This document shows positions 6,572 to 49,875 of a stretch of 64,000 nt of DNA, in pieces. Source of the stretch: Nemertoderma westbladi. Its lineage: Eukaryota > Animalia > Xenacoelomorpha. A program made the position numbers and the translations under genes. The notes under the pieces were generated by a model, which saw only the letters and a program-made list of their open reading frames with translations, had not been told where the DNA came from and ran no database searches. The stretch spans positions 1 to 64,000 of the forward strand of contig JAUCBJ010008182.1 in assembly GCA_032718475.1 (NCBI GenBank), written 5' to 3'. Each line of letters starts with the position of its first letter. The stretch's first letter is position 1.

Positions 6572-6597
6572 AGAGAGTTTAATCGATTGGGGGAGCG

Positions 6598-7372
6598 CTA
6601 TGGAGGGGGTGGGTTGCGGGTGAGGTTGTCGTCCCCCGAGACCGCGGTAGCTGAAGTTGCGACTGTCTGCAGTAAAGGGACCGGGTTTGGGTTGAGTAAT
6701 CGAGGTTTGAGTCCATATCGAACACGTTCTTCGTCATTGAGTGCGTAGTTCCGGATGCTGATGCCTGCACCCCAGGCATCGGGGTTCATTAAGGAATCTC
6801 GATCGACTTGATCACAGATCACGTGGAAGCTAATAAACGGGGAGTCTGTTCTTGGGATGATGGGTATTACTTCCTCGAAGGGGAGTTCCTCCTTTGGTTA
6901 GGTAGTTGCTAACCTCCTCGGCGGTGACGGACGGATCTAGTCTGCCTATGTGGATGTCAGCCTTTCGGACTGTTGGCGTTTTCTGTTGGAGCTGGGGAAC
7001 TCTGAGAGTGCCACCAACCTTGTTCCCGCGAAGAGATTCTGGTCGAGGTGTGCGAGGTCCTGTAGGTAGCCTAGTGAGGTTAGATTCGCGGGGGACGTAT
7101 GAGGTTGGGGTTGATTCCAGGCCCCGAACCGGAGGGCTCGATGTTGGAACCAGAACCGTTTTAGCGTGGAGGAGCTCGTTCTTTGCAGCAATTGTTTCCT
7201 CGCGAGATTCGACGAGTTTACCGAGGGTTACCGTGTACATAGAGCTCATGGCGATAAGTTTTTCGGATACTGATTTCTCTTCGTCGACAGTTACTGATTT
7301 CTTTCGCTTGAAAGATTGAACTAAACGAATGATATCATCTTGAAGCGCTATAAACTTCGCGGCTTCCACCAT
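6598..7372 (-). pseudogene. LINE ORF1 with one frameshift near 6880
   Basis: ORFs 6830-7372 and 6598-6822 join if one C is removed from a C-run, giving IHIGRLDPSVTAEEV..SFHV..LMNPDAWGAGISIRNY, an RRM-like ORF1 pattern. Confidence 0.75.
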
Positions 7373-7628: not shown

Positions 7629-8261
7629 TGGCCTACTATTTATACACCATGTGACACACCCGTAATATAGTGTCATTTTCTGATGACACGGACCCCCCCA
7701 AAATTTTCTACAAATCTTTATCATATTGCTTGAAATTTGAAACACAACTAGTTCCACTCACCGTCGATGTCAACACGAAGCCTGAATTTTTGATTTTGCC
7801 TGTAAATTTTTTATAAGCGTTTAAAAAAAGTGTCTTTTGTGAAATTGCTCTTCTCCCATCGTTGCCATTTTCCATATAGTAAAGAATTTTTCATATCATT
7901 AGAAAGCTTGCGTTGCAAGGATTCCAAATATGTAACAATATCTGAAGAATCTCATTCTCTCATTCGAGAATTTTACGTATTTATTAAATTGAATAAATGG
8001 CTTACAGCGAACGATAATTTTTGCAATCTTTGAACATCAGCTTTGCAACGCAAGCTTTCCAATGATATGAAAAATTATTCACTAATATGAAGAATGGCGA
8101 CGATAGGAGATATGCAATTTCGCAAAATACACTTTTTTAGAATGCTTATAAAAAAATCAAAGGTAGAATCAGGTAAAATCAAAAATTCCGGCTTCATGGG
8201 GACATCTACGGTGAGTGGAAGTAGTTGTATTGTCATGTTGTCAAGGTGTATAGTAGGCCAT
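7629..8261. mobile_element. Non-autonomous foldback/MITE-like element with long imperfect inverted repeats
   Basis: About 7741-7920 is the imperfect reverse complement of about 8041-8231. Outer ends ggcctacta..tatacacc and ggtgtatagtaggcc are also inverted. Confidence 0.7.
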
Positions 8262-21255: not shown

Positions 21256-23599
21256 TCTATAGACTATAATAGATATAATAGACTCTATACAAGACTGTAA
21301 TGCATTTACACTTCGACCCTTCTCTAGTGATCACCGCCTTATTGTGGCCAAGGTAAGACTTAGTTTGCGTGCTAGCAGAACAACGAAATCTGCCTTGCCG
21401 CGGAATGACTGGTCCTCTCTGTTGCAACAGCCAAGTGTGAGATCCAGCTTCACACTACAGCTGAGCAACAGGTATGAGGCTCTTGCCTCTGAGGCGGCAG
21501 ATCACTGTGAGGGCTATACTGCCTTTACAGAAGCAGTTAAGTTAGCAGCTGCAGAAACAGTTCCTGTATACCCTCGAAACAGGAAAAGGGCCCCCTGGAC
21601 TGACAACAAAATTCAGAAGTGCCGAAATGACCTTCATAAGGCGCAGAAAGAGTCCCGACTCAAACAGACTACAGTGGCCAAGAATGCAGCTAAGGCTGCA
21701 TATTTAGGTCCCTGAACAGACAGTACTCTGCTAATCTACAGTAGCTAATAAACCAACAGGTTGATGCCATCAATGATGCTGACGACAGCAGGCAATCATC
21801 CCAGGCATGGAAATCGATCAATCTGCTTACTGGGCGGAAAAGCCAACCAACCACCAAGGTTAAGGCTGAATCACCAGCCGATCGCCTCAATGGTTGGAAA
21901 GCCCACTTTGAAAAGCTCCTCAATAATGACAGGGTATTGCCTGATAACTTTATAGAAGTAAAAGTGTCTGAGTCGGTACTCCCAGATATTCCCATTGGCG
22001 ATATCTCCTTTGCAGAAGTGAAGGCTGCTGCAAAGAGCATTAAGTAAGACCAATCGTGCCAGTGGAGTAGATGGTGTTCCCCCTGAGGTCTTTAAAATAC
22101 CTGAGTGTCTAAAGCTCATCTATCCCATCATAGTAGACATGTACCGAACAACAAGAGTCCCACAGGAAATGAAAACAAATAAGTTGGTGCCAGTTCCCAA
22201 GAAGGGCAACCTAACACTCTATGGTTCTTTTCGGGGAATCTCATTGATCTCGATTGCTGCAAAGCTATACAATAGGATTCTATTAAATCGCATCAGGGAT
22301 CCTATTGAGAGACTGCTCCGTGGAAATCAGAATGGGTTCCGTAAAGGTCGTGGGACCATGGAGCCCATTTTGGCACTTAGAAGGATAATTGAAGAGTTAT
22401 CAAAAAAGAAAGACAGGCATCTGGCTGTTATCTTTGTTGACTTCTTCAAGGCCTTTGATTCAGTCTCTCGCTCACGTATGTTCAGCATACTTTCATTATA
22501 TGGGATTCCTGATGAAATTATTGCAGCAATCAGATCAGTATACGATGGTTCGACAACATTTGTGTCTACTGTTGACGGTGACACAGAACCATTTGAAGTG
22601 TTATGGGGCGTCCTCCAAGGAGACACACTTGCACCATTCTTGTTCATTATTGTGGTTGACTATGTTCTACGCATGTCCTTAGATCATTATAATGATGATG
22701 GGGTGATGATAACTCCACCTACTGGCTCCAGAAGTCGAGGAAATCCTGACAAGTACCTAACTGATCTAGACTTTGCTGATGACTTAGGAGTACTCTCAGA
22801 ATCATTAGAGGGAGCCCAACGGCTCCTCAGCTCATTAGAACATGCTGCTTCTAGTGTTGGTCTTTTTATTAACTCCAGAAAGACCAAAATTCTGACAGTT
22901 AACTTTGAAAGTCCTCAGCAAGTCTCTGATCGGATGAGCATAAGCTCAAAGGATGGTATGCTTGAGCATGTGGACGACTTCTGTTGCCTGGGATCATGGA
23001 TCCGGAAGTCAGGTGAGGACCTTCGAATACGTAAGGGAAAGGCATGGGCAGCCTTGAATAGGCTTTCCAGGATTTGGAAGTCACCGAGAATTAATCGGAA
23101 ACTTAATGTCCGATTATTTAGAGCAGCAATAGTTCCAGTACTCCTCTACGGGAGTCCATGCTGGGCTCTAACTGCTGATGACACCAAATCTCTGGATGGC
23201 ACATTCACAAGAATGCTACGCCGGGTACATTGTGTCAAGTACAATGCACACATCTCCAACCAGACACTATATAACATTGGAGGTGTCTCATTGGTTCCCC
23301 CAAGCTTGACACTAGAACAAAATCGCCTCCGCTTTGCAGGACATTGCTTTCGCCGTGGGGACCAGCCAGTGCATAATCTTGTACTTTGGCAGCCTCATGG
23401 AGTGAATAAGCATGGTGGACAGCCCATGACTTTCTTGAGACGCATCTTAAAGGACACTGGCCTTAAAGATGCGGATGATCTAGCAAATGTCATGGGTGAT
23501 AGGGAGTTGTGGCGGTGCAATTTTGTTGACAAGCCGGCACAGCATTCTTAAAAATGCAGCTGCAATGCAGCATGCCGATCCTAGTAGTAGTAGTAGTAG
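21256..23599 (+). mobile_element. 5'-truncated RTE-type LINE with frameshifts
   Basis: APE end (SSDHRLIV), RT (FRGISL, FVDFFKAFD, QGDTLAP, FADD), LRFAGHC..LVLWQP. (TAG)n tail. 12-bp TSD TATTTAATAGTA at 21244-21255 and 23600-23611. Confidence 0.92.
22139..23551 (+). CDS. RTE reverse transcriptase (remaining open part)
   Basis: 470-aa ORF with full RT motifs; upstream part 21290-22138 is broken by a frameshift and stop near 21715. Confidence 0.85.
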   Translation: MYRTTRVPQEMKTNKLVPVPKKGNLTLYGSFRGISLISIAAKLYNRILLNRIRDPIERLLRGNQNGFRKGRGTMEPILALRRIIEELSKKKDRHLAVIFVDFFKAFDSVSRSRMFSILSLYGIPDEIIAAIRSVYDGSTTFVSTVDGDTEPFEVLWGVLQGDTLAPFLFIIVVDYVLRMSLDHYNDDGVMITPPTGSRSRGNPDKYLTDLDFADDLGVLSESLEGAQRLLSSLEHAASSVGLFINSRKTKILTVNFESPQQVSDRMSISSKDGMLEHVDDFCCLGSWIRKSGEDLRIRKGKAWAALNRLSRIWKSPRINRKLNVRLFRAAIVPVLLYGSPCWALTADDTKSLDGTFTRMLRRVHCVKYNAHISNQTLYNIGGVSLVPPSLTLEQNRLRFAGHCFRRGDQPVHNLVLWQPHGVNKHGGQPMTFLRRILKDTGLKDADDLANVMGDRELWRCNFVDKPAQHS

Positions 23600-23861
23600 T
23601 ATTTAATAGTAATTCTTTAATTGTCAATATTCCCCTTTATATATGATTTTATGAATTTTATCGGCTATTGACTATATGTTGGAGATTCTCGCACACTAAT
23701 ATACTTAATAGGGTGAATCTCCGCTCCCATGATCTATTAATTAATGGAATTTTGGGAATGTTATAAATTGTATAAAATTACAATTTAACAAATTCATGAG
23801 AGGATATGAATTTAAATTTATTCCCGTAAATTTTATTATTTAATATTAAAATAGACACAAT

Positions 23862-24225
23862 TTTATTCCAGAACATGTCTGGGGACTAGAATCTTTAATT
23901 CTAGAAAATTTGTCTTTTTAAGAGTATCGGTAAGTGCTACGATATCTTATTCGACTACAATTTTAAAGGATCTAAATTTTAACAGATTTTGATTTATAGA
24001 TTTTCTAGAGTTAACTTGTAAGCATTTACTCTATTATATTTGTTTTGACAGGTTTTACAATTATTTATTAAATAGATATTTAAGATGGGCACCGATTTAT
24101 TCCAGAACATGTCTGGGGACGTTAACCACTGATTCTAGAATTTTGTCTTTCAAGTATATCGGTGGGTGCCGCGATATCTTAATCGACTAGAATGGCAGAT
24201 GGTCAAAGGGTTTAACAGATTTATT
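23862..24225. repeat. Duplicated ~130-bp block in the host BEL intergenic region
   Basis: tttattccagaacatgtctggggac..gatatctta.tcgacta..tttaacagattt at 23862 and 24096. Confidence 0.75.
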
Positions 24226-24751
24226 TTGCATTTTACGCTACTGTTAAAGGGACATCACGCTACTATATGTATTATTTAATATACGGAATGAGAGCAATAT
24301 TGCAAGAAGCAATGTCAGTGAGAAGAGGCAAGTCGTTTCCAAGGTCTACCCAGAGCTTGGATTAGCCGAGACACAAGGATCTGAACTTTGCATTCCTAAT
24401 ACTCTACTTACCAATAATACTTGAGTATAGTAGGAGCTTTATTGTACTTTAATAAGTACGGATATTTCATCTTACTGTAGTTACGTATTTATAATATGAT
24501 ACGGACAGTAAGGAAAGAGAAAAAGAATTATTTCTCGCCGTTGCACTAAATATATAATGTTAAATAATTAAGTAATAAACACGAATATATATATTGCACT
24601 AATCTCTACTAAACAATCGCTAAAATAACATTCTACTAAATAAAATTAAAGAAAACGACTATAATAAAATTACATAATAATACATACATAAATATAAAAA
24701 TAATAAAAACAAATATAAAATAATATAGTCACACACCCACTCCAGACGCTG

Positions 24752-24989
24752 TTACTTTGGGGAGTCCCTAGATGTTTGTTGGATTAGGGAGGTGGTCGTG
24801 GGAAGAGTATCTTGCCTTCCATAGTTTCCGGATAGTTCTCTGTCTCTTTCCAGTAAACATAAACGACCAACTGGGCGATTGAGTTGTTGTGTTTCGAATA
24901 CAATTCCAGGTTTCTTAAAGTTACGTCGCATGACGACGAGTTCTACCGATCGGATCGCACTAAACCATCATCGGATATATGAGTCTCGA
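24752..24989 (-). pseudogene. Host BEL integrase C-terminus, continuation of the ORF broken at 56204
   Basis: GRIIE (56204 side) continues as THISDDGLVRS..VEL..LNRPVGRLCLLE, a typical BEL integrase tail. Confidence 0.88.
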
Positions 24990-25115
24990 TATAGAATTAT
25001 ATTCCCTAAATGCCGTGGATTTTCAAAATTTTATTTTATTCGGATTAACTTTGTAAAGATTGCTTTGAGTTCTCATTCGTATTGGTTCTATCATTTGTGC
25101 ATCTATCGGTCAAGT

Positions 25116-25202
25116 GGTTCAGTAGCTCAGTCGGTAGAGCGTTGGAAATTATATGTGTAGTAGGTATTGAGTTCGAATCCTAGTAAGTGCGAATTATTTT
25201 TT
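25116..25202 (+). promoter_or_regulatory. tRNA-derived Pol III cassette in LTR1 (box A, box B, T6 terminator)
   Basis: TAGCTCAGTCGGTAGAGC (box A with intact D-stem), GAGTTCGAATCC (box B, 25169-25180), TTTTTT at 25197-25202. Acceptor and anticodon stems do not pair. Confidence 0.75.
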
Positions 25203-25259
25203 GTACAGAATTTCAACTCATTTAAATTAACCGCTACAAATTAATTGCATTTGTCTGTA

Positions 25260-25531
25260 CCAATGAGACTGTAGTTATTTGATTGTAACCAATGTCGTGC
25301 AAGTTATATATTAGCTGGACCAATAGCTATCTTTAAAACCCCGTTAGAACCCATAGAACAATCGAGAATTTTCTCGATTGATTGCGGCACAAATTTAGTA
25401 TATAAAGGTGCGATTTGTTCATTAGTTATCAATCTCTATCTCAATCTTATACATTCATTATCTCAGTGCATTCTATCTATATCTTTCTGATTTCATTAGT
25501 TATTATCTTATCTGTTTGATTTTGTAATAAA
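25260..25531 (+). promoter_or_regulatory. LTR Pol II promoter and poly(A) signal candidates
   Basis: Three CCAAT boxes, palindrome CAATCGAGAA-TT-TTCTCGATTG, TATATAAA at 25399-25406, AATAAA at 25526-25531 (a second AATAAA at 26119-26124). Confidence 0.6.
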
Positions 25532-26922
25532 AGTTAGAAATACTTGTCAAACTCAGCCCTTTTCTATCTGTTTTATCATGGATTCACTACGGTGAACAAA
25601 CTTAAGGGACAGGATGGCCAGCTAGAGATCGGGCCGCAGCAATGAACGGGAACATCGGGGGAATGTAGACGAGAGACAACCCGCAATACCATCTAGAGTT
25701 ATTCGCCCATCGCCTGAAAGGTTAGACAGCGTTCGATCCTTGCTACCTAAGTGTAAGACCAAAAGATCAAAAGGTAGACGTAGTGACACGCTGTAAGCCT
25801 AAAATTACATCATAGGGACTGTACTGTCTTGATTCAGGAAAAACCGCAGTAGACCTTCATATTCCTACGGGGGGAGGGAGAGAGAGCAGAGATACTAGTA
25901 CGCAGATAGGACATAGGCACACCAGTACGAAGCATACAAATTGGTTAGGGTGCAGCAAACTGTACGCTTAACTCTTGCTAAGTACAGGTGCGTCTGTGAC
26001 TATTTGCCGTACAACGGTGTCCATTACATCAGAACTTGTAGGCTAGGGGGGTTGCTGTGTTTTCACCTGAATTGAGATTGTACCGTTCAGGCGGTAGGGC
26101 AGTTTACAGCTAGGCGCAAATAAATTGAGGCTATCAGGGATATACTAACATCTACCGTGTCCCCGCCAACGCCCTAATAGGAAGTTACCCGGACTACCTG
26201 GGTGACTAAAATTCTAGATAGGAGCCAGGATAGCTATTAGTAACTCTACGCCTACAGTAGTAAACTAACACATCTCTTCTTAGTATCAGGGACCTGGTAC
26301 CTAAAATTGCCGAATTCTGGGCGTAGTATTAACCTTATGCCTGAATTTGAGTCCTGGAAATACGCAAGAGGGGAAGGAACCTTATCATTCGTGAGTATTG
26401 GACCTACAAGTTATAAAATTAGAATATTCGTAAAATGCACACCGTACCCAGTAATTATATATGTGAAGGAGCAAAACTGCCTTTGACCATTCAGAATTAA
26501 CACACGCGCATTAGAAATTATTTACACCTCAAAATATATAAAATTAACTTTTGTCCTTACTGCACTTTGCTCGCTAGTTAGACATCTCCAAATCTCTGCC
26601 TGTACCTAGCTAGCGTCCCTTTGCCCAACCATATAAATCACACCGCGGCAAAGTATACGAGCCCCTTAGTCCGTCAGTGAGTCAGCCTGATTTTAGGATT
26701 CGCTGCGCGGGATTTTGTTTTATCGAAGTTTGTCTGCTCGTAGACTGTTTTCTGCCTCACCGGTTATAAGAGATCGATACTGCAATATATTCGCTTACTT
26801 AGAGTTTACTGTTTTGGTGAGAAGGTCGGATTTATGATTTGATTTACAAACTTTACAGTAAGATATTGCAGGTATTGTTACCGTCTCTTCCAATAGTAGG
26901 AATAGGCGTATCTCTTCAATTA

Positions 26923-26933
26923 GTAGGAATATG
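26923..26933 (+). other. Primer-binding-site position, non-tRNA type (GTAGGAATATG)
   Basis: Abuts the LTR end, lacks TGG, and is the exact reverse complement of LTR 25858-25868 CATATTCCTAC. Confidence 0.65.
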
Positions 26934-27524
26934 TTTTACTGAACTACGGTTCGGTAGGACTAAAGTTATTTGAAAATTTTGTATTTTGAGGTAAAAATTT
27001 GTATTTGATTAGCTAAGTGCTAATTTTTTGAAATAAAATTTGATTTGAACCGCGTGTAAAATATTTTTGGAATTGAATACCGGTGTTTAAAAGGGTTTAA
27101 ATACCATATTGTACCGGTACAAAATTTTCGTAAAAGTAAAACCTAACTCTTTTGTTTTTCAGGATTCAGAACTCATTTCTAGACTGTAACGGGAGCAAGA
27201 CCGTGTTTAGCAAGTTTGGTAGATAGATAACTCAACAACTTTGGTTGGGAAAATCGCGTTTCGTCCGCAACGTTAAAAACGGAAAGGTTCACGTCCGGTT
27301 TGTATCTGGGAATCTGTTTTTCTGGAGAATTATTGGAGTGGGTGAGTTCGAAAAGTTGCATAAATAAGTTAGGCATTACCGTATTAGTTAAAATTATTGT
27401 GGGTTCCACTGTCTCAAGTATTTATGCATTCCGTATGATTTCTTTGTTCATTGCTGAATTAGTCCGTATTATTGTATTTAATTTACCTTTTGATAACGCA
27501 TATCGTTATCCGATTTATTTGTTA

Positions 27525-27647
27525 TAAAATTGGCCGCTAGGCTAATTTTATTATATACTTATTCCGTGACATTTATTTGCTGTAAAATTGGCCGTTTAGG
27601 CTAATTTTATCCATCTGCTATAAAATCGGCCGGTAGGCTAATTTTAT
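27525..27647 (+). repeat. Three tandem stem-loops in the 5' leader (also about 40335-40457)
   Basis: AAAATYGGCC-[GCTA/GTTTA/GGTA]-GGCTAATTTT three times, about 85 nt before the gag ATG. Confidence 0.8.
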
Positions 27648-27731
27648 ATGACTGTAATTAGTACCGTTTAGATATAAATACGGTAAACTCGATACTTTGA
27701 CACTCACTTTACTTGACTTACAACTACCGAA

Positions 27732-30700
27732 ATGAGTGACAAACAAGACTATACGAAAAATACACAAACCGACTATGACTCATGTGACGCGGATAAGTCA
27801 GCAGCGGAAGGACAACAGGGGAAGACTCGCGAGCCTACCGAACCTACACCGTGTGCGTCACCAGTACACCCAACGGGAGTACCGGATGCCGTAGTACGAG
27901 GCGACGGCAGGACCGAGGACTTTCTAACTGTTCCGCAACCTAGATACAGGGAAACGGAAATGGTAAGTTCAGCAGGAAGCACAGAAAGTGTGGTTAGAAG
28001 CGTCGGAGGTTACATGGCGCATATTACCAGGAGTATTGGAGAAGGCCAACGCATATTAGACGGGTTGACCGCTCCGATGTCTCGATTCGAGTTCTATACC
28101 CTCCAGGTTAGAGTACAGAGTAAAGTATATAAGTCCGTAGATAATCTAGTTGGCCTACAAGATCTAGCTAGACAGAGACAGGACATGGATACTCAACTTA
28201 GAATCCTCGAGAAACTAATGATCACTAGAGAGAAACTGATTCAGTTTAAGTCGACGATTAGACAGATACAACAGGAACAAGCGGACCAGTTGTTAGGTGA
28301 GTCAGTTTCGGACGAATTATTACAACCCGAGGAAGAACAGGAACTGTACCGACTGGATGGACAATTAAAACACCTGACGGACCACTTACGTATGTGCGGC
28401 GAAGACGTCGGAGATTGGGAAACCGTGCCGGAATATACGAGGGAAACTTCACCCGTACGAATCGAATCAGCACCGGGAATACTGGACCAGTCGTTGGTAA
28501 GTATTCGTAGCGAAATCTGCGAGGGAAGTATAGTCACGTCAGAAGTTGCTCGACAACAGCAAGAATTCCACCGACAACGACAAGAAATGGAAGAACAAGC
28601 TCAACTTCTAGTGATGCAGGCAGCAGTAGAGGAAGAGAAGCTACGCGTTGCGAATATAGCAAGAATCTCTCATCTACAGGAACAAGCTGAATTAGAAGCA
28701 GCTGAAGTAGAAAGGTTAGAAATAGACATTGCCCGACAAGCGGCAGCGGCAGCGGCCGAGGTAGAGCGACGAGCGGCAGCGGCCGAATTAGAGCGACAAA
28801 ACGCAGCGGCCGAATTAGAGCGACAAAACGCAGCGGCCGAGTTGGAGCGACAAGCGGCAGCGGCCGAGTTGGAGCGACAAACGGCAGCGGCAGAATTACA
28901 ACGAGAAAGGTTAGTTTCGGAGGCGCGGGCCGAAATGAAAACACGGCAAATAAAGGCTCAATCCGCTATACGACAAGCGGAGTTTGAGGCGCAACGACAA
29001 CAAACGGAACAACGAGAGAAGACAGCTAAACTTCATTTCGAACTCGAGAAGAAGGCGAGAGAATTAGCGAACGCTGAGGAAGATCTGGATCAAAAGGCCC
29101 GCGATAGATCGATGAGATCTCGTGACGGACATGATTTGGACCAGTTAGAGGTAAGACATCGCCAAATTCAGGAACGGAAGAAGGAAGGAAGCGTAGGAGC
29201 ACCCGGACGGGAACGACAATTAGTAAAAGACGTGTGTCAACGATTCCCACAGGTAACTCATATGTTTGCACCGGTTACGACTAAGGAACCTGTTTCGATT
29301 GCGGGTAGTAGTGATATTTCTCCTATCCATGGTGCGACGGAACACAGGTTTGTTATTCCGGACGAGTTTATACCGCCAAGAGCAACGTCGTCGCCCATTC
29401 CGAAAGTCAAGGTAAGTAACCCACCGATTACGGATCGTAGTAGTTTATTAACCGGACCCGCACTACTGACGACAAAACAGGTGAGTCCACCTTTGACACC
29501 TAAACCCATTACACATTACGCTTATCCAATGACGTTTCGACCTACAAGGCCAGTTGTTTCAAATGCTGTCATTCGCCCACCGAACCAGTTTACATCGCAA
29601 TCTACGACTTCGAGGAAGACTTGTGAGCCTACCGAACAACGGAGAACAGTGGAGACGCGACCATTCAACCAGTTTACATCGCAATCTACGACTTCGAGGA
29701 AGACTTGTGAGCCTACCGAACAACGGAGATCAGTGGATGATGTTCCGAAACGAACCGTTAGAATTCGTACGACGCAACGAACGCGAGCACGTCGACCACC
29801 ATATCCAGATGATAGTAGTACTTCGAGCGAATCGGATTACCCGAAACGCGAGGTATTTAGAACAGGGGCGGCCGATGAATATAAACGCGAGCGTTCAGAC
29901 AACTCTTTTGCAGACAACCCTCCACAGAATACACCGACACAGAAGGCGTTACCACCAGCGGGCGCGATCGGTGCGCAACAGTTCGCCGACATTGTCAACA
30001 AGTTGGCCCGGATTGAGGAACGTCTGGAGGAAGGTTACACCGACAGTTCGAGAAATTCCGAATTCGAACACAATAGACATCCGAAGGGACCACAAAGACC
30101 GGTACCTTCAAACCCCACAAGCGATCAGGGAAAAGCGCCAAGAAGGGAGAACATCAACCAGACTACCAACCAAGGACGCGAAACTCTGAACGTTGCCGAG
30201 GAGATAGCGAAATTCGCAGCCAGACAAGGATTGCCGGTACAACAACCACCGAAGTTTTCCGGTAGCTCAAAACACTGGCATACCTTCGTAGACTATATCG
30301 AATCCCAGATCGCCGTGTGCGCCTTTACATCACGGGAGAAGTTCAATTACCTGCTCCAAACGTTGTCAGGAGAACCTAAACGTTTGGCGGAGACTTTCGT
30401 CGGTGTACCGGACGCTTTCGAACTAGCGTACGATCGTTTGACTTCGATATACGGAGGTACAGTGAGTATGGCCAGGTCAGTAATAGAAGAACTCTGTAAG
30501 GGAGGGGCTATCACTAAACCCGTCGACTTACTAAAACTAGCTGACGAGATCAAGAACGCTATCACTACCTTAAGATCAATTGGACAACTTGATTACGGGA
30601 ATACCCCTACAGTCCTATTAAAGATAATAGGACGACTCCACCATCGACTTCGTCGGGAGTGGAGGAAGGTCGAATACCAGCGAGAGGAGCGAGGAGGATT

Positions 30701-33700
30701 CCTAAAATTAGAAGATGTGTACCTTTTAATATCCAGGGAGGCGGTAGTAGAAACTCGATCTAACTATACCGACCAGCACATCGTGGCAGAAGGGATCACA
30801 CTGCCATCCTCCAACCGACAAAAACCCCAGACAACATCCACAAAGACGGCCACTTACGCCACACCGACGGAATCACGACAATTCTCAGACGGTAATAGAG
30901 TATCTGCGCCCATTGGGACGAAACAGACGAGACAGCAACTCAGCGCCGACTTCAACGGCTGCCAATACTGCGAGCATCTAGGTAAGCGGTATATTGGTCA
31001 CAAGTTACGAGGTTGTCGACAATTTCGCGAGTTGAACTCGGAAGAACGACGGCTGCAGATACGGCCACTGGACTCTTGTTGGCGGTGTACGCGACACGGA
31101 CACGTCCGTAAGGATTGCCCAAATACCGACACTTGTCCATCCTGTGGACGCAACCACGACGGTCTGCTCCACACAGACAGCCACACGCCGACGAAACGCT
31201 TCGCCAGGGAACACCCGGAAGCAGCAGCGAGATGTGATACGGCTTACCGAAAACGAGAATCAAAAACGACTCCAACCTTCGTGACACATATTGAGGATTG
31301 CTTCTCAGAACAATCCGGATCGTCGGACGAAGAATCAGAAGACGACGCTGAATATTCCAATGGAGACGAACAACCGTCGATCGCGCTCCTGACTACTGAT
31401 CAACTGAAGGGATTCAGTGTAATCCCGATTAAGGTTACTGGCACAAAGGGGAGCAAGAGGATCTATGCGATTCTAGATTCAGCCTCATCCCATAGCTACG
31501 TGGACGAAAAGATAGCTGACGTCGTGACGGATCTAAGACAAGGTAAACACGTCAGTTATACAGTAAGTAGTATGCACGGCCAGCGTGCAATACCAGTGAC
31601 ACGAGTTAAGTTGGACTTAGACTCTCTTCTTCCAAAATCGCAGCATAGCGAGAGGGAGAGGTCTTTGTTGCCCTTTAGAGATCTAACCTTTGCGGCCACG
31701 AAGGACTTTAGTAACCTACTAGGTCCAGTGCCGGAACAATCTCTGGAGGACCGTAAGTATTTCAGACACCTTGGTGTACCCGAATGTCCTGTCAATTATA
31801 GATCGGTAGCAATGCTGATCGGGACGGACCAATTCAACCTACATCAGGTGTGGGAAACCAGACCATCGGCAGTTGTAGCAGGAAACGCATACGCCTGCAG
31901 AACGCCGATAGGGTGGTATACACGAGCGCCTGTGCGCACACTAGACGTAAGTGACGAGGAAGACGATGTACAGAGTACATGCAGTTTATTAACTACAAAC
32001 TCAATTCATTCCTTTTCACACGACGTGAACCATACTACACTACAGTCGACAAAACATCACAGACGTGTAACTAGTATGATAAGTCACAAGGAGCAGCTAA
32101 CCCACAAGGTGAGTTTAGAACTTGGGGAGAAGACGAATCAGCTAGAGATTCCATCGACGACAGATGATAGGCTTGCGAGTCTACCTACCCCAATAACCTC
32201 AACAGTGCCCGTCGATATCGATGATGACGCGTTGAAAATTCATCAGTTGGAACAAGCCGCCTTGGACAAAGAATTAACGGAGAAGACTATCAGGTGGTTA
32301 GAACAAGATACAGCTGAACCTGGTAGCTACGAACCTTGTATGTCGGAACAGGAGAAACAATCCCTAAAGATCATGGAGGATACTATCCGACAGACGGAGG
32401 ACGGACATTACGAGGTGGGGATGTTATGGCGTAGCCAAAGTCCTAAACTTATAAATAACTACCCACTGGCATTAAGACGTCTACACTCAATACGACAACG
32501 TCTATTAAAGGACGAGAAAGCCCATCTGCAGTACAACACTCAGATGGAGACGTATTTGACTGAAGGATACGCTATCCGAATGACTAACCCGGAGCGAGTG
32601 ACCGACCAGACATACTACCTGCCACATCACTATGTGAGACATCCCGACAAACCAGACAAAGTACGTGTAGTCAATGACTGTGCAGCTCTGTTTGAGGGAA
32701 TGTCCCTCAATAGTGAGTTGATGGATGGACCGAACATGAATAATTATCTTATGGGGGTGATTATGCGCTTCCGTCAGCGTCAAGTAGCCTTTACTTGCGA
32801 CGTTGAAGCGATGTTTCACCAAGTAAAAGCGTTAGAGCGAGACAGAGACAGTTTGCGGTTTCTCTGGTATCCGGAAGGGGACTTAAGTCTACCACCAGCG
32901 ACTTACCAAATGCAAGTTCGCGTTTTCGGTGCCAGAGACAGCCCAAATTGTACGATGTACGCCTTGAAACAAGCCGCTAGAGATCAGAAACATCTGTATG
33001 ACCCAGAGATAATTAGAATTGTAGAACGTGACTTTTACGTTGATGACGGATTACAGAGTTGCGACACAGTAGAACGTGCTACAACAGTAGCACATCAATT
33101 ACGGGACTGCTTGAACAGTAACACACTGACAAACAGTAAAGCCGCAGTTTCCCTATTGGAGCGGCCTTCTATTGACAAACAACTAGATACGTTACCAGAC
33201 GTATCGCCAGACACATTACTAGACAGTCAACTAGACACTAGTAATGTATTGACTAACAATAAAGCCGCAGTTTCCCTATTGGAGCGGCCTTGTATTGACA
33301 AACTACCAATTTTGACACACTTGAGCAACCATAAGCAAGGTGAAACCTCATGTATTACAGATGTGGGTAGTACCTACGCTAATGTAAATACAGGTGTTAC
33401 TCTGCGCTCAAGAGACATACCGAACTTACAACCTATGATGAGACCTGGGATTAATGTCGGCAGAAAAATAAGTTTACCGAAACCTGCTGACCCCATAGAG
33501 TTCAAACCACCATTAACGATCGACTTACAAAGTACCGACAATCAAGGTAAGAAGACAAAGAAGGACAAATTACTTGTAGACCCGGACGGATCAACAGTCA
33601 ACAAGGGAATACTTACCGGCGGACCCGTGGGCCCTTCTAGTAATTCAAAACCTTCCAAGTTCTCCATTGACTTACCTGATGACGTCACAAATACTTACGT

Positions 33701-35207
33701 CGACCGTATTGTATACCTAACAGATTCTTGGTCAAACGCTTGCCGAAAACTAGCGTGGATTGTACGTTTTGTACAATACGTTAAAGGCAAACGTGACTTT
33801 ACACGTCGACTTACATTGGCTGAGATTGACAGGTGTGAGATTAAATTAATTCGCCATTACCAACTGCGATATTTCGCGCGCGAATTCACATCTATAAATC
33901 AAGGTCAACCAATCAAGTCGTCACCAATACTGAGTTGGAGTCCGATTATTTATAATGGCTTAATTTGTCATAAATCTCGGCTTCAAAACATTGACTTTAA
34001 CACAAACTTTAGGTACCCAATAATAATACCGCAACATCACGAACTACAACGTGCAATGATACTGGACGCACATTTACATCTGAAACACGCTGGAAGACAC
34101 CACTGTCTTTCCTACTTACGTACTAGATTTGTATTAATTAGACCCAGTAAAGCATTAAGTTCAGTGACACGTACGTGTATTATTTGTAAAAAGGTACATT
34201 CTAGAATAGGTACCCAAGAAATGAGTGAACTACCACAAGCACGACTTCAAGCATTCAGACCACCTTTTACAGAGACTGGAATTGATTGCTTTGGTCCCAT
34301 ACATACGAAACGTGGACGTATACTAGTAAAACGCTGGGGACTGATTTTCACATGTATGTCCAGTAGGGCAGTTCACATTGAACGTGTGATGGATCTTTCC
34401 ACCAACGCGTTTATACTAGCACTGCGGCGATTTATCGCTAGACACGGACTAGTAAAATGCTTGTACTCAGACCAAGGGACAAACTTCGTTGGTGCTCGGA
34501 ATGAGATTGCTAGAGCCTTTAAGAAATTAGATCATGATCAAATCTCGAACGAACTGCAACCTCACAAGATTGTTTGGAAGTTCAATCCTCCAGATAGTCC
34601 TTGGAGAGGCGGAGTCTGGGAGAGACTGATTAGATCTATAAAGACAGCAATGGCAAAGGTCATTCCAGTAAACCACATATTAACAGACGACCAACTGACA
34701 ACATTGTTTGTTGAAATCGAGGCAATACTAAATACTAGACCAATAGTATTAGTACCCGATGACAAACAATCTCAGTTTGCTTTGACACCGGCACACCTGC
34801 TAATGCAGGCACCGACGACTTTGACACCTATTTCTATTCCAATAGAAAGCGACAGCTACGGTAGAAAAGCGTGGAAAATCACGCAACTACTAGCTAACAA
34901 ATTCTGGGAAATATGGCAAAACCATTATTTGCCCTCTATTTCTGCCAGAACAAACTGGTACAATAACACCCGCGCATTAAAGCCGGGAGATCACGTGCTG
35001 TTGGCAGAAGTGAATCTAAAAAGACGCTTCTGGATAACAGGTGTCATTTTAGCCACACATCCATCTATGGATGGAGTGACAAGAACTGTGACGGTACGGA
35101 CAATTGACGGTCGTACAGTAGACAGACCGACTCAACGTCTCGTACTTCTTGAAGAGACTCGTAACGAGTCTGGAGACTACAAATCTCCACCTAATACTAG
35201 TAAATAA
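27732..35207 (+). CDS. BEL/Pao Gag-Pol, copy 1, with in-frame deletion of RT C-terminus and RNase H
   Basis: Triple Cys/His knuckles, protease ILDSAS, RT YVDD, integrase HHCC and D-D-E (GIDCFGP, SDQGTNF, GGVWERL). Jumps from HQLRDCL to NTLTNSK, lacking about 1.25 kb present in copy 2. Confidence 0.93.
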   Translation: MSDKQDYTKNTQTDYDSCDADKSAAEGQQGKTREPTEPTPCASPVHPTGVPDAVVRGDGRTEDFLTVPQPRYRETEMVSSAGSTESVVRSVGGYMAHITRSIGEGQRILDGLTAPMSRFEFYTLQVRVQSKVYKSVDNLVGLQDLARQRQDMDTQLRILEKLMITREKLIQFKSTIRQIQQEQADQLLGESVSDELLQPEEEQELYRLDGQLKHLTDHLRMCGEDVGDWETVPEYTRETSPVRIESAPGILDQSLVSIRSEICEGSIVTSEVARQQQEFHRQRQEMEEQAQLLVMQAAVEEEKLRVANIARISHLQEQAELEAAEVERLEIDIARQAAAAAAEVERRAAAAELERQNAAAELERQNAAAELERQAAAAELERQTAAAELQRERLVSEARAEMKTRQIKAQSAIRQAEFEAQRQQTEQREKTAKLHFELEKKARELANAEEDLDQKARDRSMRSRDGHDLDQLEVRHRQIQERKKEGSVGAPGRERQLVKDVCQRFPQVTHMFAPVTTKEPVSIAGSSDISPIHGATEHRFVIPDEFIPPRATSSPIPKVKVSNPPITDRSSLLTGPALLTTKQVSPPLTPKPITHYAYPMTFRPTRPVVSNAVIRPPNQFTSQSTTSRKTCEPTEQRRTVETRPFNQFTSQSTTSRKTCEPTEQRRSVDDVPKRTVRIRTTQRTRARRPPYPDDSSTSSESDYPKREVFRTGAADEYKRERSDNSFADNPPQNTPTQKALPPAGAIGAQQFADIVNKLARIEERLEEGYTDSSRNSEFEHNRHPKGPQRPVPSNPTSDQGKAPRRENINQTTNQGRETLNVAEEIAKFAARQGLPVQQPPKFSGSSKHWHTFVDYIESQIAVCAFTSREKFNYLLQTLSGEPKRLAETFVGVPDAFELAYDRLTSIYGGTVSMARSVIEELCKGGAITKPVDLLKLADEIKNAITTLRSIGQLDYGNTPTVLLKIIGRLHHRLRREWRKVEYQREERGGFLKLEDVYLLISREAVVETRSNYTDQHIVAEGITLPSSNRQKPQTTSTKTATYATPTESRQFSDGNRVSAPIGTKQTRQQLSADFNGCQYCEHLGKRYIGHKLRGCRQFRELNSEERRLQIRPLDSCWRCTRHGHVRKDCPNTDTCPSCGRNHDGLLHTDSHTPTKRFAREHPEAAARCDTAYRKRESKTTPTFVTHIEDCFSEQSGSSDEESEDDAEYSNGDEQPSIALLTTDQLKGFSVIPIKVTGTKGSKRIYAILDSASSHSYVDEKIADVVTDLRQGKHVSYTVSSMHGQRAIPVTRVKLDLDSLLPKSQHSERERSLLPFRDLTFAATKDFSNLLGPVPEQSLEDRKYFRHLGVPECPVNYRSVAMLIGTDQFNLHQVWETRPSAVVAGNAYACRTPIGWYTRAPVRTLDVSDEEDDVQSTCSLLTTNSIHSFSHDVNHTTLQSTKHHRRVTSMISHKEQLTHKVSLELGEKTNQLEIPSTTDDRLASLPTPITSTVPVDIDDDALKIHQLEQAALDKELTEKTIRWLEQDTAEPGSYEPCMSEQEKQSLKIMEDTIRQTEDGHYEVGMLWRSQSPKLINNYPLALRRLHSIRQRLLKDEKAHLQYNTQMETYLTEGYAIRMTNPERVTDQTYYLPHHYVRHPDKPDKVRVVNDCAALFEGMSLNSELMDGPNMNNYLMGVIMRFRQRQVAFTCDVEAMFHQVKALERDRDSLRFLWYPEGDLSLPPATYQMQVRVFGARDSPNCTMYALKQAARDQKHLYDPEIIRIVERDFYVDDGLQSCDTVERATTVAHQLRDCLNSNTLTNSKAAVSLLERPSIDKQLDTLPDVSPDTLLDSQLDTSNVLTNNKAAVSLLERPCIDKLPILTHLSNHKQGETSCITDVGSTYANVNTGVTLRSRDIPNLQPMMRPGINVGRKISLPKPADPIEFKPPLTIDLQSTDNQGKKTKKDKLLVDPDGSTVNKGILTGGPVGPSSNSKPSKFSIDLPDDVTNTYVDRIVYLTDSWSNACRKLAWIVRFVQYVKGKRDFTRRLTLAEIDRCEIKLIRHYQLRYFAREFTSINQGQPIKSSPILSWSPIIYNGLICHKSRLQNIDFNTNFRYPIIIPQHHELQRAMILDAHLHLKHAGRHHCLSYLRTRFVLIRPSKALSSVTRTCIICKKVHSRIGTQEMSELPQARLQAFRPPFTETGIDCFGPIHTKRGRILVKRWGLIFTCMSSRAVHIERVMDLSTNAFILALRRFIARHGLVKCLYSDQGTNFVGARNEIARAFKKLDHDQISNELQPHKIVWKFNPPDSPWRGGVWERLIRSIKTAMAKVIPVNHILTDDQLTTLFVEIEAILNTRPIVLVPDDKQSQFALTPAHLLMQAPTTLTPISIPIESDSYGRKAWKITQLLANKFWEIWQNHYLPSISARTNWYNNTRALKPGDHVLLAEVNLKRRFWITGVILATHPSMDGVTRTVTVRTIDGRTVDRPTQRLVLLEETRNESGDYKSPPNTSK

Positions 35208-35869: not shown

Positions 35870-37563
35870 ATGGAGAAAGGGATACAAGGAGAGCCGAGAT
35901 GGGGATATGATATCCAAGAGGAAGCGGCAGCTTCATTCGAACGATTTGGAGCAAAAGACTACACTATATTTGGTATAAAGGAATTATCGGAAAGTACAGC
36001 GAAGCTCGCAAAGACAGCAATGCCTTTACTCGAGCAGGATTTAGCATATTTCGAGACGTGTATCTTCGCTGTCTTATCGAAAGACCATCTATGTTTACAT
36101 TGTTACCCTATGAAGGAGAACGTATCGTGGAGATTATGGATGAATCACGGCAGACGCGTGCGCCTATCGGTCACCTTGGTGATGAATTCGAAGTAACTAC
36201 TACGATCGCCGACGATCCTTTAGAGGAACTTCTTGAGATAGAAAGGAACCTCCCGAAGAAATCTCAGACGGAGATTCGACAACTTGAAGCAACAGATGCT
36301 ATAGTTTGTATACAACCTTCAGAAACCTACCAACCCATAGACCCAGACGATTACGATTATAGTATGGGAGGAAGCGCTCGACCGATTGGAGATCTTATAT
36401 ACGAACGAGTGTGGTACCCTGCCAATACGATGTGTAGTAAATGTGGCGTCGCTGGACATCATATGGCAAAGTGCAGTGGAAAGCACATTACTACGACTCA
36501 GCTAATCTGTGGATGGTGTGGGGATCAAGGGTCTCATACCTTTTATACTTGCTGGAGATTTATGGCCCAATGTACTTATTGCAATATAAAGGGACATCGA
36601 GCATCTGAATGCCAACTAAGAGACATACCCTATGAACACGAATCTGTAAAACTCGTGAGGAAATTATTTGACGAGTGGGAAGATTTAGCCGACGAACATG
36701 TATCAGCACAAAGAAGACGGTTTCCGATGAGAGCGCATCTCGGATTTTGGGCGGTAAATCCTCAAACGATGAGGTCGGAAGGATATATCTCCGCTATGCC
36801 CCAATATGACGAACTTATCGAGGTTGTCGATATTTTGCCCCACGACAGCGGATTTCGAGTGGTGCGCGAGTATCTGTTACAGATTCACCCGGATAACAAA
36901 AACACGTGGAATTTTCAGAAAGTCGTAAATCGTATCACGTATGGTGAATTTGATCGTTTCCGAACCGAAAAGCGGAATAAAGGAGCTTGGTTAACCGTCG
37001 CATGGGCGTACCGAGCCGCGTTTTACCATAAACGTATACGAGCGAGCGTATTCGAGGAAGAGGAGGTCCTAGAGGCGACGAATATACCAGCCACTCCGGT
37101 TGCGCCGTCTGCACGTCACCCTCGGGAGGACGGGCAGGGTAGGATCATACGGGTCCAGAAGGTGGGCCAACAATTGAAGAAAATTATTAATGTGGAAGAA
37201 CGCAAGGGAGTTGAGCCGACTATTCGAGTTACTCGGGATACGGTATCACTTCCAAGAGAACCGGTAGGAGGATCGGGACATACACCAGCTGATCAACAGG
37301 GGGCGCAAGCTACTCTTGGGTCTGCGTCGTCCGCCTTTCGCGAGTTCCCAGACGTTCTACCAACTGTAGCGACAACTGATCGGTCACGAGGAATTGGTCG
37401 AGGTTTTGGGATGCCAAATAGACGAATTTGTGAGGAAATAGTCGCACCGTCTCTTAACGTCCCAAGTAAACCAGTGACTCGCCCCATTAGTCCCATATCG
37501 CGAGCAAAGTCACCTGTGCGCAGTTTTCGAGGACGCGGCAGGGCTCGATCTACTAAGCGATAA
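35870..37563 (+). pseudogene. ORF3 copy 1, with ~2-kb internal deletion removing the N-terminal and exonuclease domains
   Basis: First ~48 codons match 49876 onward, then sequence resumes at the equivalent of about 52048 out of frame. The zinc-knuckle half 36058-37563 remains open. Confidence 0.88.
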
Positions 37564-37609: not shown

Positions 37610-38355
37610 TTTGTGATTTATTTTGAATTATATGTTTTATATTTAGAAAATTTAGTAAATTTATATTTTATATTTGTGCTTATTTCGAACTTATGCAATT
37701 TGTATTGTTCCGAATTTATGAAATTTAGAAATAAGAACTCATATTTAGTAAACTTATATTTAGTAAGAATTTATATTTTATATTTACGTGATTATTTCGA
37801 ACTTATGCAATTTATATTATTCTGAACTTATGCAATTTATATTGTTCCGAATATTATGCAATTTATATCTTATAAGCAGTATTTGTATTTACAGTGAAAT
37901 AGAAAGTTTTATAGATAGAAAATTTGTGCTCAGAAAGACTCATATTTGTAATTATTCCAAACTTATGCAATCTACATTTAGGTACGAAAGTATTTGTAAT
38001 TACTTGAATTTATGCAATATTTGAGATGCAATAGTAGATGGAAGACTCGCGAGCCTTTCTTATTGTTTTCATTTATTTGTATTTGTAATTGTTTGAATTT
38101 ATGCAATATTGAGATGCAATAGATTTATATTGGTGAATTTAATTTAGATTTATATTGTACTTACTTAGTAAAGCCTTAAATACGTAAAGTTTGAATTTGT
38201 AATTATTTTTGTATCGAATCATTACGTAAAAGGGAAGTATTGTTTGAAACTTAATTGTAAATATGTAAGTACGCCCTAAGTATTTTATAGTTTGATTGAT
38301 TATTGGTGAAAACCGTATATTTTATGCACGATAATATCCTGTTTTCATGGAGCGG
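37610..38355 (+). repeat. AT-rich repetitive 3' UTR ending in short PPT GGAGCGG (also about 53650-54270)
   Basis: Repeats of aacttatgcaattt and atttatatttagtaa. GGAGCGG directly abuts LTR2 and LTR3. Confidence 0.7.
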
Positions 38356-40280
38356 TATAGAATTATATTCCCTAAATGCCGTGGATTTTCAAAATTTTAT
38401 TTTATTCGAATTAACTTTGTAAAGATTGCTTTGAGTTCTCATTAGTATTGGTTCTATCTATTGTGCATCTATCGGTCAAGTGGTTCAGTAGCTCAGTTGG
38501 TAGAGCGTTGGAAATTATATGTGTAGTAGGTATCGAGTTCGAATCCTAGTAAGTGCGAATTATTTTTTGTGCAGAATTTCAACTCATTTAAATTAACCGC
38601 TACAAATTAATTGCATTTGTCTGTACCAATAAGGCTGTAGTTATTTGATTGTAACCAATGTCGTGCAAGTTATATATTAGCTGGACCAATAAGCTATCTT
38701 TAAAACCTTGTTAGAACCCATAGAACAATCGAGAATTTTCTCGATTGATTGCAGCACAAATTTAGTATATAAAGGTGCGATTCGTTCATTAGTTATCTCA
38801 ATCTTATATCCCAATCTTTCTCAGATTACCTTATCAATATTCTGTCGTGCTTAGTTCATTCTCAGATTACATTGTATTATAATTGTGTCTTCTGTAATAA
38901 AGTCAGAATATTCTCTCAGCTTTTCTGTTTTACTATGAATTCACTACGGTGAACAAACTCAGGGACAGGATGGCCGGCTAGAGATCGGGCCGCAGCAATG
39001 AACGGGAACATCACGGGAATGTAGACGAGAGACAACCCGCAATACCATTTTAGAGTTATTCGCCCATCGCCTGAAAGGTTAGACAGCGTTCGATCCTTGC
39101 TACCTAAGTATAAGACCAAAAGATCAAGAGGTAGACGTAGTGACACGCTGCAAGCCTAAAATTACATCATAGGGACTGTACTGTCTTGATTCAGGAAAAC
39201 CCACAGTAGACCTTCACATTCCTACGGGGGGAGGGATAGCGCAGGCAGATACTAGTACGCAGATAGGACGTAGGCACACCGGTACAAGGCATACACATTG
39301 GTTAGGGTGCAGCAAACTGTACGCTTAACTCTTGCTAAGTACAGGTGCGTCTGTGACTATTTGCCGTGCAACGGTGTCCATTGCATCAGAACTTGTAGGC
39401 TAGGGGGGTTGCTGTGTTTTCACCTGAATTGGGATTGTACCGTTCAGGCGGTAGGGCAGTTTACGCTAGGCGCAAATAAATTGAGGCTATCAGGGATATA
39501 CTAACATCTACCGTGTCCCCGCCAAAGCCCTAATAGGAAGTTACCCGGACTACCTGGGTGACTAAAATTCTAGATAGGAGCCAGGATAGCTATTAGTACC
39601 CGTACGCCTACAGTAGTAAACTAACACATCTCTTCTTAGTATCAGGGACCTGGTACCTAAAATTGCCGAATTCTGGGCGTAGTATTAACCTTATGCCTGA
39701 ATTTGAGTCCTGGAAATACGCAAGAGGGGAAGGAACCTTATCATTCGTGAGTATTGGACCTACAAGTTATAAAATTGGAATATTCGTAAAATGCACACCG
39801 TACCCAGTAATTATATATGTGAAGGAGCAAAACTGTTTTGACCGTTCAGAATTAACACACGCGCGTTAGAAATTATTTACACCTCAAAATATATAAAATT
39901 AACTTTTGTCCGTACTGTGCTTTGCCCGCTAGTTAGACATCTCCAAATATCTGCCTCTGTACCTAGCTAGCGTCCCTTTGCCCAACCATATAAATCACAC
40001 CGCGGCAAAGTCTACGAGCCCCTTAGTCCGTCAGTGAGTCAGCCTGATTTTAGGATTCGCTGCGCGGGATTTTGTTTTATCGAAGTTTGTCTGCTCGTAG
40101 ACTGTTTTCTGCCTCACCGGTTATAAGAGATCGATACTGCAATATATTCGCTTACTTAGAGTTTACTGTTTTGGTGAGAAGGTCGGATTTATGATTTGAT
40201 TTACAAACTTTACAGTAGGATATTGCAGGTATTGTTACCGTCCCTTCCGATAGTAGGAATAGGCGTATCTCTTCCAATTA
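38356..40280 (+). repeat. LTR2 (1925 bp), diverged from LTR1 and LTR3
   Basis: Same termini, many substitutions and a strongly different segment after the TATA box. Pol III cassette retained at 38482-38568. Confidence 0.94.
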
Positions 40281-40539
40281 ATTGTATTTAATTTACCTTT
40301 TGATAACGCATATCGTTATCCGATTTATTTGTTATAAAATTGGCCGCTAGGCTAATTTTATTATATACTTATTCCGTGACATTTATTTGCTGTAAAATTG
40401 GCCGTTTAGGCTAATTTTATCCATCTGCTATAAAATCGGCCGGTAGGCTAATTTTATAAGACTGTAATTAGTACCGTTTAGATAAATACGGTAAACTCGA
40501 TACTTTGACACTCACTTTACTTGACTTACAACTACCGAA

Positions 40540-49213: not shown

Positions 49214-49875
49214 TTAGGAGTTTACAAATAAATTTCCACTTACCTGTACACCGTAGTAAGGACAGCGGTAGAATTCCATTGTCTTTATATGTGAACATTG
49301 AGGGTAGTACCCTTATGTGTCACATAGGATCGGGATTTGTAGGTATAAGAAATGGAATTCTACTTGGAACTCACAATATTGAGACATTTTCGAAAATTTT
49401 AGACAATCCATTTGGATTTGAAAAATTTTTAAAATTTTCTCCAGTGAATAGATTTCAGGGTACAGTCGGGTGGAACTTAAAATTAGAGAAACAAGAGAGG
49501 AAGACTTGCGAGCCTTTCTTAAAATTTTAATTAAATTTTACACGGTCTTGTTTCAATAAGTTATGTCAAAATAGACTCCCCTATATATTTATTACTAATT
49601 CTTGACTGCTTATTTTCTGATAATAGTTTGGGATCAAAAAGTGAGTATTTTAGACTCACGGCCAGTTTAGCCCAAATTCGTTTTTACTTCGGCAAAAAAT
49701 TTTAGATAAGAAGCAGCGTGTCATTAAAGAAACCTTAGATCTTAGGCTATGGGTAGGAGGTTAGAGCGTTGTCGAGCCCAAAGGGCAGACGAAACTCTCA
49801 CGTCTCCTCACAACTAACTACAAACTCTGTTGTATTCCCTCTAGTAGTAATGATTATGTAACTACACCCCTAATT

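Follow-up and report, generated by a model that had tools for sequence, protein, structure and literature searches.

Complementarity between the primer-binding position and the LTR in a BEL/Pao retrotransposon of Nemertoderma westbladi and its relatives suggests priming by the element's own RNA

The window analysed here is the 64,000-nt stretch of Nemertoderma westbladi contig JAUCBJ010008182.1 (assembly GCA_032718475.1, positions 1 to 64,000, forward strand). It holds a BEL/Pao tandem made of two internal units and three LTR copies, each of about 1.9 kb, with the following main features.

24985–24989 (+): left target-site duplication CTCGA (5 bp), which with its right copy at 56204–56208 brackets the entire tandem
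24990–26922 (+): LTR1, 1933 bp, TATAG...AATTA, with TA...TA ends
27717–35207 (+): BEL/Pao gag-pol of unit 1, missing ~1.3 kb of the RT-RNase H region present in unit 2
35911–37563 (+): second ORF of unit 1, with CCHC knuckles, ~2 kb shorter than that of unit 2
38346–38355 (+): short purine-rich tract before LTR2, at the PPT position
38356–40280 (+): LTR2, 94% identical to LTR1, with an allele of the 11-mer described below that carries C at 39217
40525–49213 (+): gag-pol of unit 2, with a frameshift in the RNase H region (46229–46395)
49765–53601 (+): unit 2's second ORF, broken by a TGA at 52009
54271–56203 (+): LTR3, differing from LTR1 at 4 sites

The gag-pol carries DUF1759, the Pao Peptidase_A17, Integrase_H2C2 and DUF5641, and its reverse transcriptase (RT) is nearest to those of BEL/Pao; the LTRs and the 5-bp target-site duplication likewise agree with this group. 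The nearest proteins are 43–48% identical, and those that carry a name belong mainly to sea urchins, molluscs, cnidarians and fish, in keeping with the host range of the Sailor lineage (Sinbad/Sparrow/Surcouf) or of Suzu (PMC554778, PMC6238403), a comparison made by host range alone. No close relative of the element was found among the viral contigs searched. Both internal units are damaged, unit 1 by the loss in its RT-RNase H region and unit 2 by the frameshift and by loss of leader sequence. The second ORF of unit 2, which is large, lies after pol and has CCHC knuckles, was considered as an env gene and rejected, as it matched no such family.

Six of nine sequencing runs of the species match part of the stretch, none of them recorded as RNA, and contigs of runs X2 to X5 were compared with it. 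The tandem interrupts an older BEL element on the minus strand, within the C-terminal region of its integrase, and contigs of X2 and X3 show the loose ends of the empty site at 24990. This broken host element (23720–24985 and 56204–59097, minus strand) has its PBS outside view; its purine tract resembles that of the element studied here, and the quick tree described below puts the RTs of both into one group. Within the tandem, LTR2 joins leader position 27468 directly, so unit 2 lacks 26923–27467 and the primer-binding position is present after LTR1 only. The junction (40280/40281) is blunt, as an integrase join would give. The arrangement is best explained by insertion of one copy into another's leader followed by recombination, an origin under which the PBS of unit 1 probably goes with LTR1/LTR3. 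The leader also contains, at 27517–27648 (+), three 35-nt repeats, each with a 12–13-bp palindrome around GGCC/GGCT, which are possible dimer or packaging signals. Elsewhere in the window there are LINE-type RT ORFs at 3797–6733 (−), with an AP endonuclease, and at 22022–23551 (+), a fragment at 61586–63025 (−) that has no Pfam match and by eye resembles the end of a non-LTR element, and an inverted repeat at 7729–8245.

The features of LTR1 and of the adjoining leader that bear on replication are listed next.

25123–25134 and 25171–25179 (+): weak tRNA-like A box and B-box-like GTTCGAATC in U3
25399–25406 (+): TATA box (TATATAA); an upstream start near 25431 is predicted from spacing
25430–25570 (+): variable block, 64% identical between LTR types against 94–97% elsewhere
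25526 (+): AATAAA within the variable block, kept across copies and also found in loose ends of other copies
25721–27162 (+): probable GT..AG intron of 1442 nt, containing both the 11-mer and the PBS
25858–25868 (+): candidate self-primer, the 11-mer CATATTCCTAC, starting inside an initiator-like TTCATA with a predicted +1 at 25859
25869–25886 (+): purine run past the predicted cut site, able to pair with LTR-end pyrimidine runs and with competing partners
26119–26124 (+): second AATAAA, 251 nt past the 11-mer and kept in LTR2 (39475), a candidate end of R for strand transfer
26884–26904 and 26911–26931 (+): 27-nt near-duplication at the LTR end, with a second, 9-nt PBS-like copy at 26896–26904
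26923–26933 (+): primer-binding position GTAGGAATATG, without spacer and without TGG
26933–26960 (+): hairpin of 12 bp, loop C(UACG)G, immediately following the PBS (−14.3 kcal/mol, z −5.71; none of 200 shuffles reached this stability)

An earlier reading of the same stretch, made from its letters only and here called the sequence-only reading, had pointed to TATA at 25399 and to TCATATT at 25857, and both are present. The variable block (25430–25570, against 38797–38930 in LTR2) begins at the predicted upstream start, ends a little beyond the AATAAA and consists of short degenerate T/C/A repeats. The upstream 27-nt unit of the near-duplication is missing from five X2 contigs, which have loose ends before 26911, so the duplication is polymorphic within the species; two X4 contigs have loose ends behind 26895. 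The tRNA-like region of U3 (25113–25205, +), which is followed by a T run and kept in LTR2, is detected by ARAGORN only at a lowered threshold and not at the default, has a fold z of −0.03 and no match in Rfam; it may be a Pol III promoter, an insulator or a SINE remnant.

The central claim of the sequence-only reading was that the LTR ends at 26922, that GTAGGAATATG follows directly with no TGG, and that 25858–25868 is its exact reverse complement. LTR comparison bears out the first part, since LTR2 and LTR3 diverge at the same letter and the CTCGA duplication agrees. The complement is equally exact; it occurs once in the LTR and has no 12th pair. Neither a TGG at or near 26923 nor the 18-nt tRNA-complementary PBS of the ICTV description was found; what the position offers is an own-LTR complement of 11 nt that begins right at the LTR, within the bounds by which self-priming has been predicted elsewhere (at least 10 nt, 0–5 nt past the LTR, with no tRNA site). 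The chance of such a match had been put at about 5e-4, an estimate whose order holds but whose value doubles, to ~1e-3, when measured on dinucleotide shuffles of the LTR (19 of 20,000). Complements of 11 nt within this long LTR exist for seven of the 794 start positions tried along the leader, so only the location at the LTR edge makes the match unusual.

In the predicted fold of an RNA spanning 25858–27000, ten of the 11 pairs of the duplex have probabilities of ~0.9–1.0, whereas in the fold from 25425 the 11-mer is trapped with 26035–26050 instead. A second helix, proposed earlier to join the purine run at 25869–25886 to the LTR-end pyrimidine run, is obtained when the two strands are folded by themselves (7 bp with LTR1), but in the 25858–27000 fold the purine run prefers 26733–26761, so this helix has partial support. 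We also considered, and rejected, a ribozyme or an element-encoded tRNA ending at 25868, for which Rfam gave no match and 25820–25868 folded like its shuffles (z 0.22), and an intron-split alternative primer in the window LTR, whose best match of 9 nt was reached by 15 of 60 shuffles.

LTR2 carries C at the position equivalent to 25860, and from this allele a corresponding change in the PBS had been predicted. That change, G at 26931 where the window has A, exists in two samples from two studies: among the matches listed, two X2 contigs and three X3 contigs match 8 PBS letters, then read G, and then continue with the leader letters of the window. The two matching alleles were observed apart, C in LTR2 and G in the X2 and X3 contigs, as a candidate compensatory pair. 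A further 136 loose ends lie beyond the matches listed, and other PBS variants may exist among them.

The probable intron that contains both partners of the duplex is indicated by one X4 contig (depth 249.8) that joins 25720 to 27163 with 25 letters on its short side, and two X4 contigs have loose ends at the same donor; the joint is absent from the X2, X3 and X5 contigs. At the acceptor (27162) there are CAG, a pyrimidine tract and a branch-point-like CTAAC. The label of run X4 is 'DNA?', and its RNA status is our interpretation: we take it as RNA because it is the only run with a GT..AG joint, donor loose ends, and 128 A>G against 14 G>A places. Its contigs on 25680–26752 show dense plus-strand A-to-G changes (68 within 366 letters, 96 within 701), the pattern expected of sense RNA hyper-edited by ADAR. 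Other X4 contigs cross 26140 (26047–26460) and 25858 (25801–25990) unbroken, but contigs cannot reveal RNA ends, so these count neither for nor against ends at 25858 and 26140.

Relatives of the element were collected with a profile of 17 BEL RTs, which yielded 99 loci: the best 80 of at least 561 metagenome loci and 19 genome-bin loci. The latter (L081–L099) are contigs in bacterial genome bins that carry animal-type BEL/Pao elements and are probably host DNA. We used the 19 of the 99 loci in which two diverging copies fix the LTR's 3′ end, leaving out L045 (a duplicate of L048), L099 (damaged end) and L091 (tandem repeat). The LTR start is unfixed in nine of the 19, for which 210–1010 nt before the LTR end were taken, and the set is partly dependent, with L084/L085 and L012/L017 as related pairs and many loci that may share a host.

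A first pass with offsets of 0–3 gave a match of at least 10 nt in 13 of the 19, each reached by 0–5 of 200 shuffles. In a second pass, set after inspecting the misses (offsets of 0–4, L012 and L092 with longer slices, L017 and L092 with ends trimmed to CA), 17 of the 19 had a PBS complement of 10–15 nt in their own LTR, 15 of them across a GT..AG intron and two contiguous (L001 and L083). With the same score, 3′ flanks gave 0/19 and unrelated cross-family pairs 13/338. Pairing starts 0–4 nt past the LTR in the 17 relatives and covers exactly 11 or 12 nt in 13 of them; the paired part begins with GT in 13, as in the window element. Donors of the split matches read GTRMG in 13 of 15 cases against 57 of 968 background GTs, a feature outside the search criteria. 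A[AT]TAAA lies 1–98 nt past the primer in 13 of the 17, which is the layout required by strand transfer, and initiator-like motifs occur near the primer in five, against a background of 14%. The PBS letters differ among the 17 families, and each keeps a complement to its own LTR. L084 and L085 were also tried as a compensatory pair and set aside, as each LTR scores 11 with the other's PBS via another GT.

The two remaining relatives differ in kind. L061 has a TGG after a 5-nt spacer and no own-LTR match, and is the sole clear TGG tRNA-type site among the 19; the letters after its TGG presumably fit a tRNA 3′ end. L088 reaches 8 nt, or 11 with one mismatch by eye. L038, counted among the matches, combines a TGG at +2 with a 10-nt split match. 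Eleven further loci, in which only the LTR start is fixed, are weaker evidence because their LTR end was inferred from the match itself: seven have a match of at least 10 nt after CA or TA and four have none. One of the seven, L030, has a contiguous 10-nt match and is among the rows nearest the window element in a quick tree. That tree places the window element in a 17-row group (SH-aLRT 96) which includes the tRNA-type L061, and it thus does not support a claim of single origin. The LTRs of the window element end in TA...TA and not TG...CA (24990–24991, 26921–26922); L001, L034 and L096 have TA at the 3′ side only.

As judged from these comparisons, the self-priming layout is no rare exception near the window element, since 17 of its 19 nearest readable relatives have it, and the match in the window is real, not a product of chance, and common to a lineage rather than a lone oddity. 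A tRNA-type PBS is absent from 17 of the 19, so this feature of the ICTV description does not describe this part of the family.

We consider it likely that the element primes in the manner of Tf1, with its own RNA, when all forms of such priming are taken together. The sequence-only reading had proposed tRNA-independent priming in a BEL lineage, and both the predicted PBS allele and the own-LTR complements of the relatives support that inference. With less assurance, we think that the primer probably comes from RNA begun at a second start site, located at 25858 or shortly before it. Transcripts of the TATA promoter would be spliced from 25720 to 27163, as one contig partly shows, and, having lost primer and PBS, would serve as mRNA only. 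RNA from ~25858 would begin past the splice donor and so stay unspliced; its first 10–11 bases would fold onto the PBS, stacked on the 26933–26960 hairpin. A cut after 25868, like that made by RNase H in Tf1 RNA, would then free a 3′-OH that primes minus-strand DNA from 26922, and an RNA 3′ end past the AATAAA at 25526, at ~26119–26140, would let the strong-stop DNA transfer. Under this reading, RNA should start near 25858, an RNA end should lie at 25868, and the alleles at 25860 and 26931 should be linked.

The second start is favoured because splicing appears to remove both primer and PBS from TATA-driven RNA, because the initiator-like TTCATA overlaps the primer start, because the short RNA, and not the long one, is predicted to fold into the primer–PBS duplex, and because a poly(A) hexamer follows the primer within 98 nt in the 13 relatives noted above and at +251 in both LTR types of the window. 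In retroviral mechanics the primer is copied back into the PBS when plus-strand DNA is made, and this would favour a short primer near the RNA 5′ end. Against a second start, there is no TATA box 25–35 nt before 25858, only five of the 17 relatives have initiator-like motifs near the primer, and the AATAAA at 25526, upstream of the primer and kept across copies, means that this reading needs read-through. In the split relatives only 3–9 paired letters stand before the intron, so their RNA probably starts some way upstream of the paired part.

Such short 5′ halves, found in 15 relatives, would also suit an internal primer, which we regard as possible but unlikely. Here unspliced RNA from the TATA promoter (~25431) would be cut or trimmed at 25868 and its 440-nt 5′ piece would prime, with reverse transcriptase switching to a second packaged RNA for U5 and R. 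The sole clear TATA box and the conserved AATAAA at 25526 bracket a normal R, with which the variable block at 25430–25570 coincides, and trimming could fall to the exonuclease-like second ORF. Exonuclease ORFs have been proposed to process the 3′ ends of retrotransposon RNA (available text of PMC5408684), and by language-model features 51034–52008 resembles WRN-type 3′–5′ exonucleases, with an Atlas score of 0.93 against WRN-like exonuclease clusters (24 of 30 matches; PF01612 on 38% of members). We treat this likeness as a lead only: for an exonuclease in the second ORF, Pfam, PDB and phmmer (1.84 billion representatives) returned nothing, the single-sequence structure model has a pLDDT of 31, and a longer, 710-aa second-ORF query gave no usable match among the Atlas clusters. 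The long RNA, moreover, is predicted to trap the 11-mer elsewhere, a long primer would presumably be over-copied into the PBS, a cut at 25868 would part R from its template, and in the readable relatives the LTRs are short and the poly(A) signal follows the primer.

Quite unlikely, in our view, is that the pairing is structural or regulatory, masking the PBS or gating packaging or splicing, with a host RNA, for example a tRNA fragment, as the true primer. Any functional helix should covary, so covariation would fit this account too; ICTV describes host tRNA priming for the family (PMC8742986), and one of the 19 relatives, L061, combines a TGG site with no own-LTR match. However, with PBS letters that differ in 17 families, a separate host RNA ending in something other than CCA would be required for each of them, the two PBS alleles within one species would need two primers or wobble, and the duplex ends at the LTR edge, or at most 4 nt from it, where DNA synthesis must start. 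That a long AT-rich LTR holds this complement by chance, the true PBS having been lost or lying elsewhere, is very improbable and already largely refuted, for although the leader frequency given above and a permissive split score (two of 19 foreign PBSs reach at least 11 against the window LTR) allow for it, the match is contiguous at offset 0, the predicted G allele was found, 17 of 19 relatives match, and the adjoining hairpin is far more stable than its shuffles.

Taking self-priming with the element's own RNA as the preferred reading, the window family appears to represent the form in which the primer is contiguous; its LTR is unusually long, and splicing seems to keep mRNA apart from copyable RNA. 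A wider proposal, which we offer tentatively and with considerable doubt, is that a large aquatic BEL/Pao branch gave up tRNA priming independently of Tf1/sushi and of the plant TAR group. In most of its families the spliceosome would assemble the primer across an LTR intron. In the window family a ready-made primer would lie deep in the transcript, inside the intron, so that splicing would decide copyability, and the primer 3′ end would arise by an internal cut or through trimming by the element's own WRN-like exonuclease. Should the preferred reading of self-priming hold, such priming would have arisen in a third LTR superfamily and would be the norm, frequently in connection with splicing, for an animal lineage that is widespread, and this would explain missing PBS calls in annotations of aquatic invertebrates.

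The nematode element Cer7 is said to encode its own primer; the literature searched contained no such report. Nor did it contain a report of BEL/Pao self-priming, although most subscription journals and Repbase reports lay outside its scope and prior mention is possible. Term counts in four BEL/Pao surveys (PMC554778, PMC3118150, PMC6238403, PMC8556966) show no mention of PBS or tRNA, PMC8220671 mentions the PBS only generically, and the available parts of PMC3601003 and PMC9873768 add nothing further on the question. Self-priming is already known, and its occurrence in a superfamily defined as tRNA-primed would, as far as these sources and the sequence comparisons go, likely be new.

BEL/Pao elements are defined as host-tRNA-primed, and their replication is called poorly understood (PMC8742986). 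The ICTV description of Belpaoviridae gives an 18-nt PBS complementary to tRNA-Arg or tRNA-Gly, LTRs of 0.2–1.2 kb and genomes of 4.2–10 kb (PMC8742986). The window element resembles this family (Semotivirus) in its single gag-pol with BEL/Pao domains, its LTRs and its PPT position, and differs in lacking a tRNA site, in an LTR of 1.9 kb, in units of 15–18 kb including both LTRs, in its TA...TA ends and in an extra ORF that is not recognisably env. An extra ORF past pol with likeness to a 3′–5′ exonuclease is also known from the bdelloid LTR elements Juno and Vesta, whose ORF3 is described as a DEDDy exonuclease (available text of PMC5408684); those elements belong to another group, and in the window element the likeness is one of language-model features only. 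The separation of RNA pools proposed here has a counterpart in the barley copia element BARE, in which one pool is translated and uncopyable and another is packaged; the available part of that account does not describe BARE as self-priming (PMC3735527), and the pools of the window element are inferred.

Self-priming itself has been described for Tf1/sushi, Tcn1 and TAR/Houba/Osr-1 (available parts of PMC6317226, PMC4600332 and PMC6934838). For the plant Ty1/copia elements TAR/Houba/Osr-1 and the Tcn1 chromoviruses it was predicted by the same criterion of at least 10 nt at 0–5 nt from the LTR; they represent other superfamilies and hosts, and the available text makes no mention of an intron-split primer (PMC6317226). 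The closest parallel is that of the fission yeast elements Tf1, Tf2 and Tj1 of the Tf1/sushi group, which likewise have an 11-nt complement between PBS and LTR and no tRNA site (PMC7175516, PMC4600332, in their available parts). As the accessible text reports, Tf1 RNA pairs with the PBS through its first 11 bases and is cut by RNase H between the 11th and the 12th (PMC7175516), while in Tf2 alternative starts give copy-competent and incompetent RNA (accessible part of PMC5341516). Tf1/sushi elements have a Ty3/gypsy chromovirus pol, whereas the window element is BEL/Pao by its protein families and falls outside that clade. Its 11-mer, unlike the RNA-terminal bases of Tf1, is located within a probable intron, 459 nt downstream of the TATA box and 1054 nt short of the LTR end, and in most of its BEL/Pao relatives the candidate primer is itself split by an intron.
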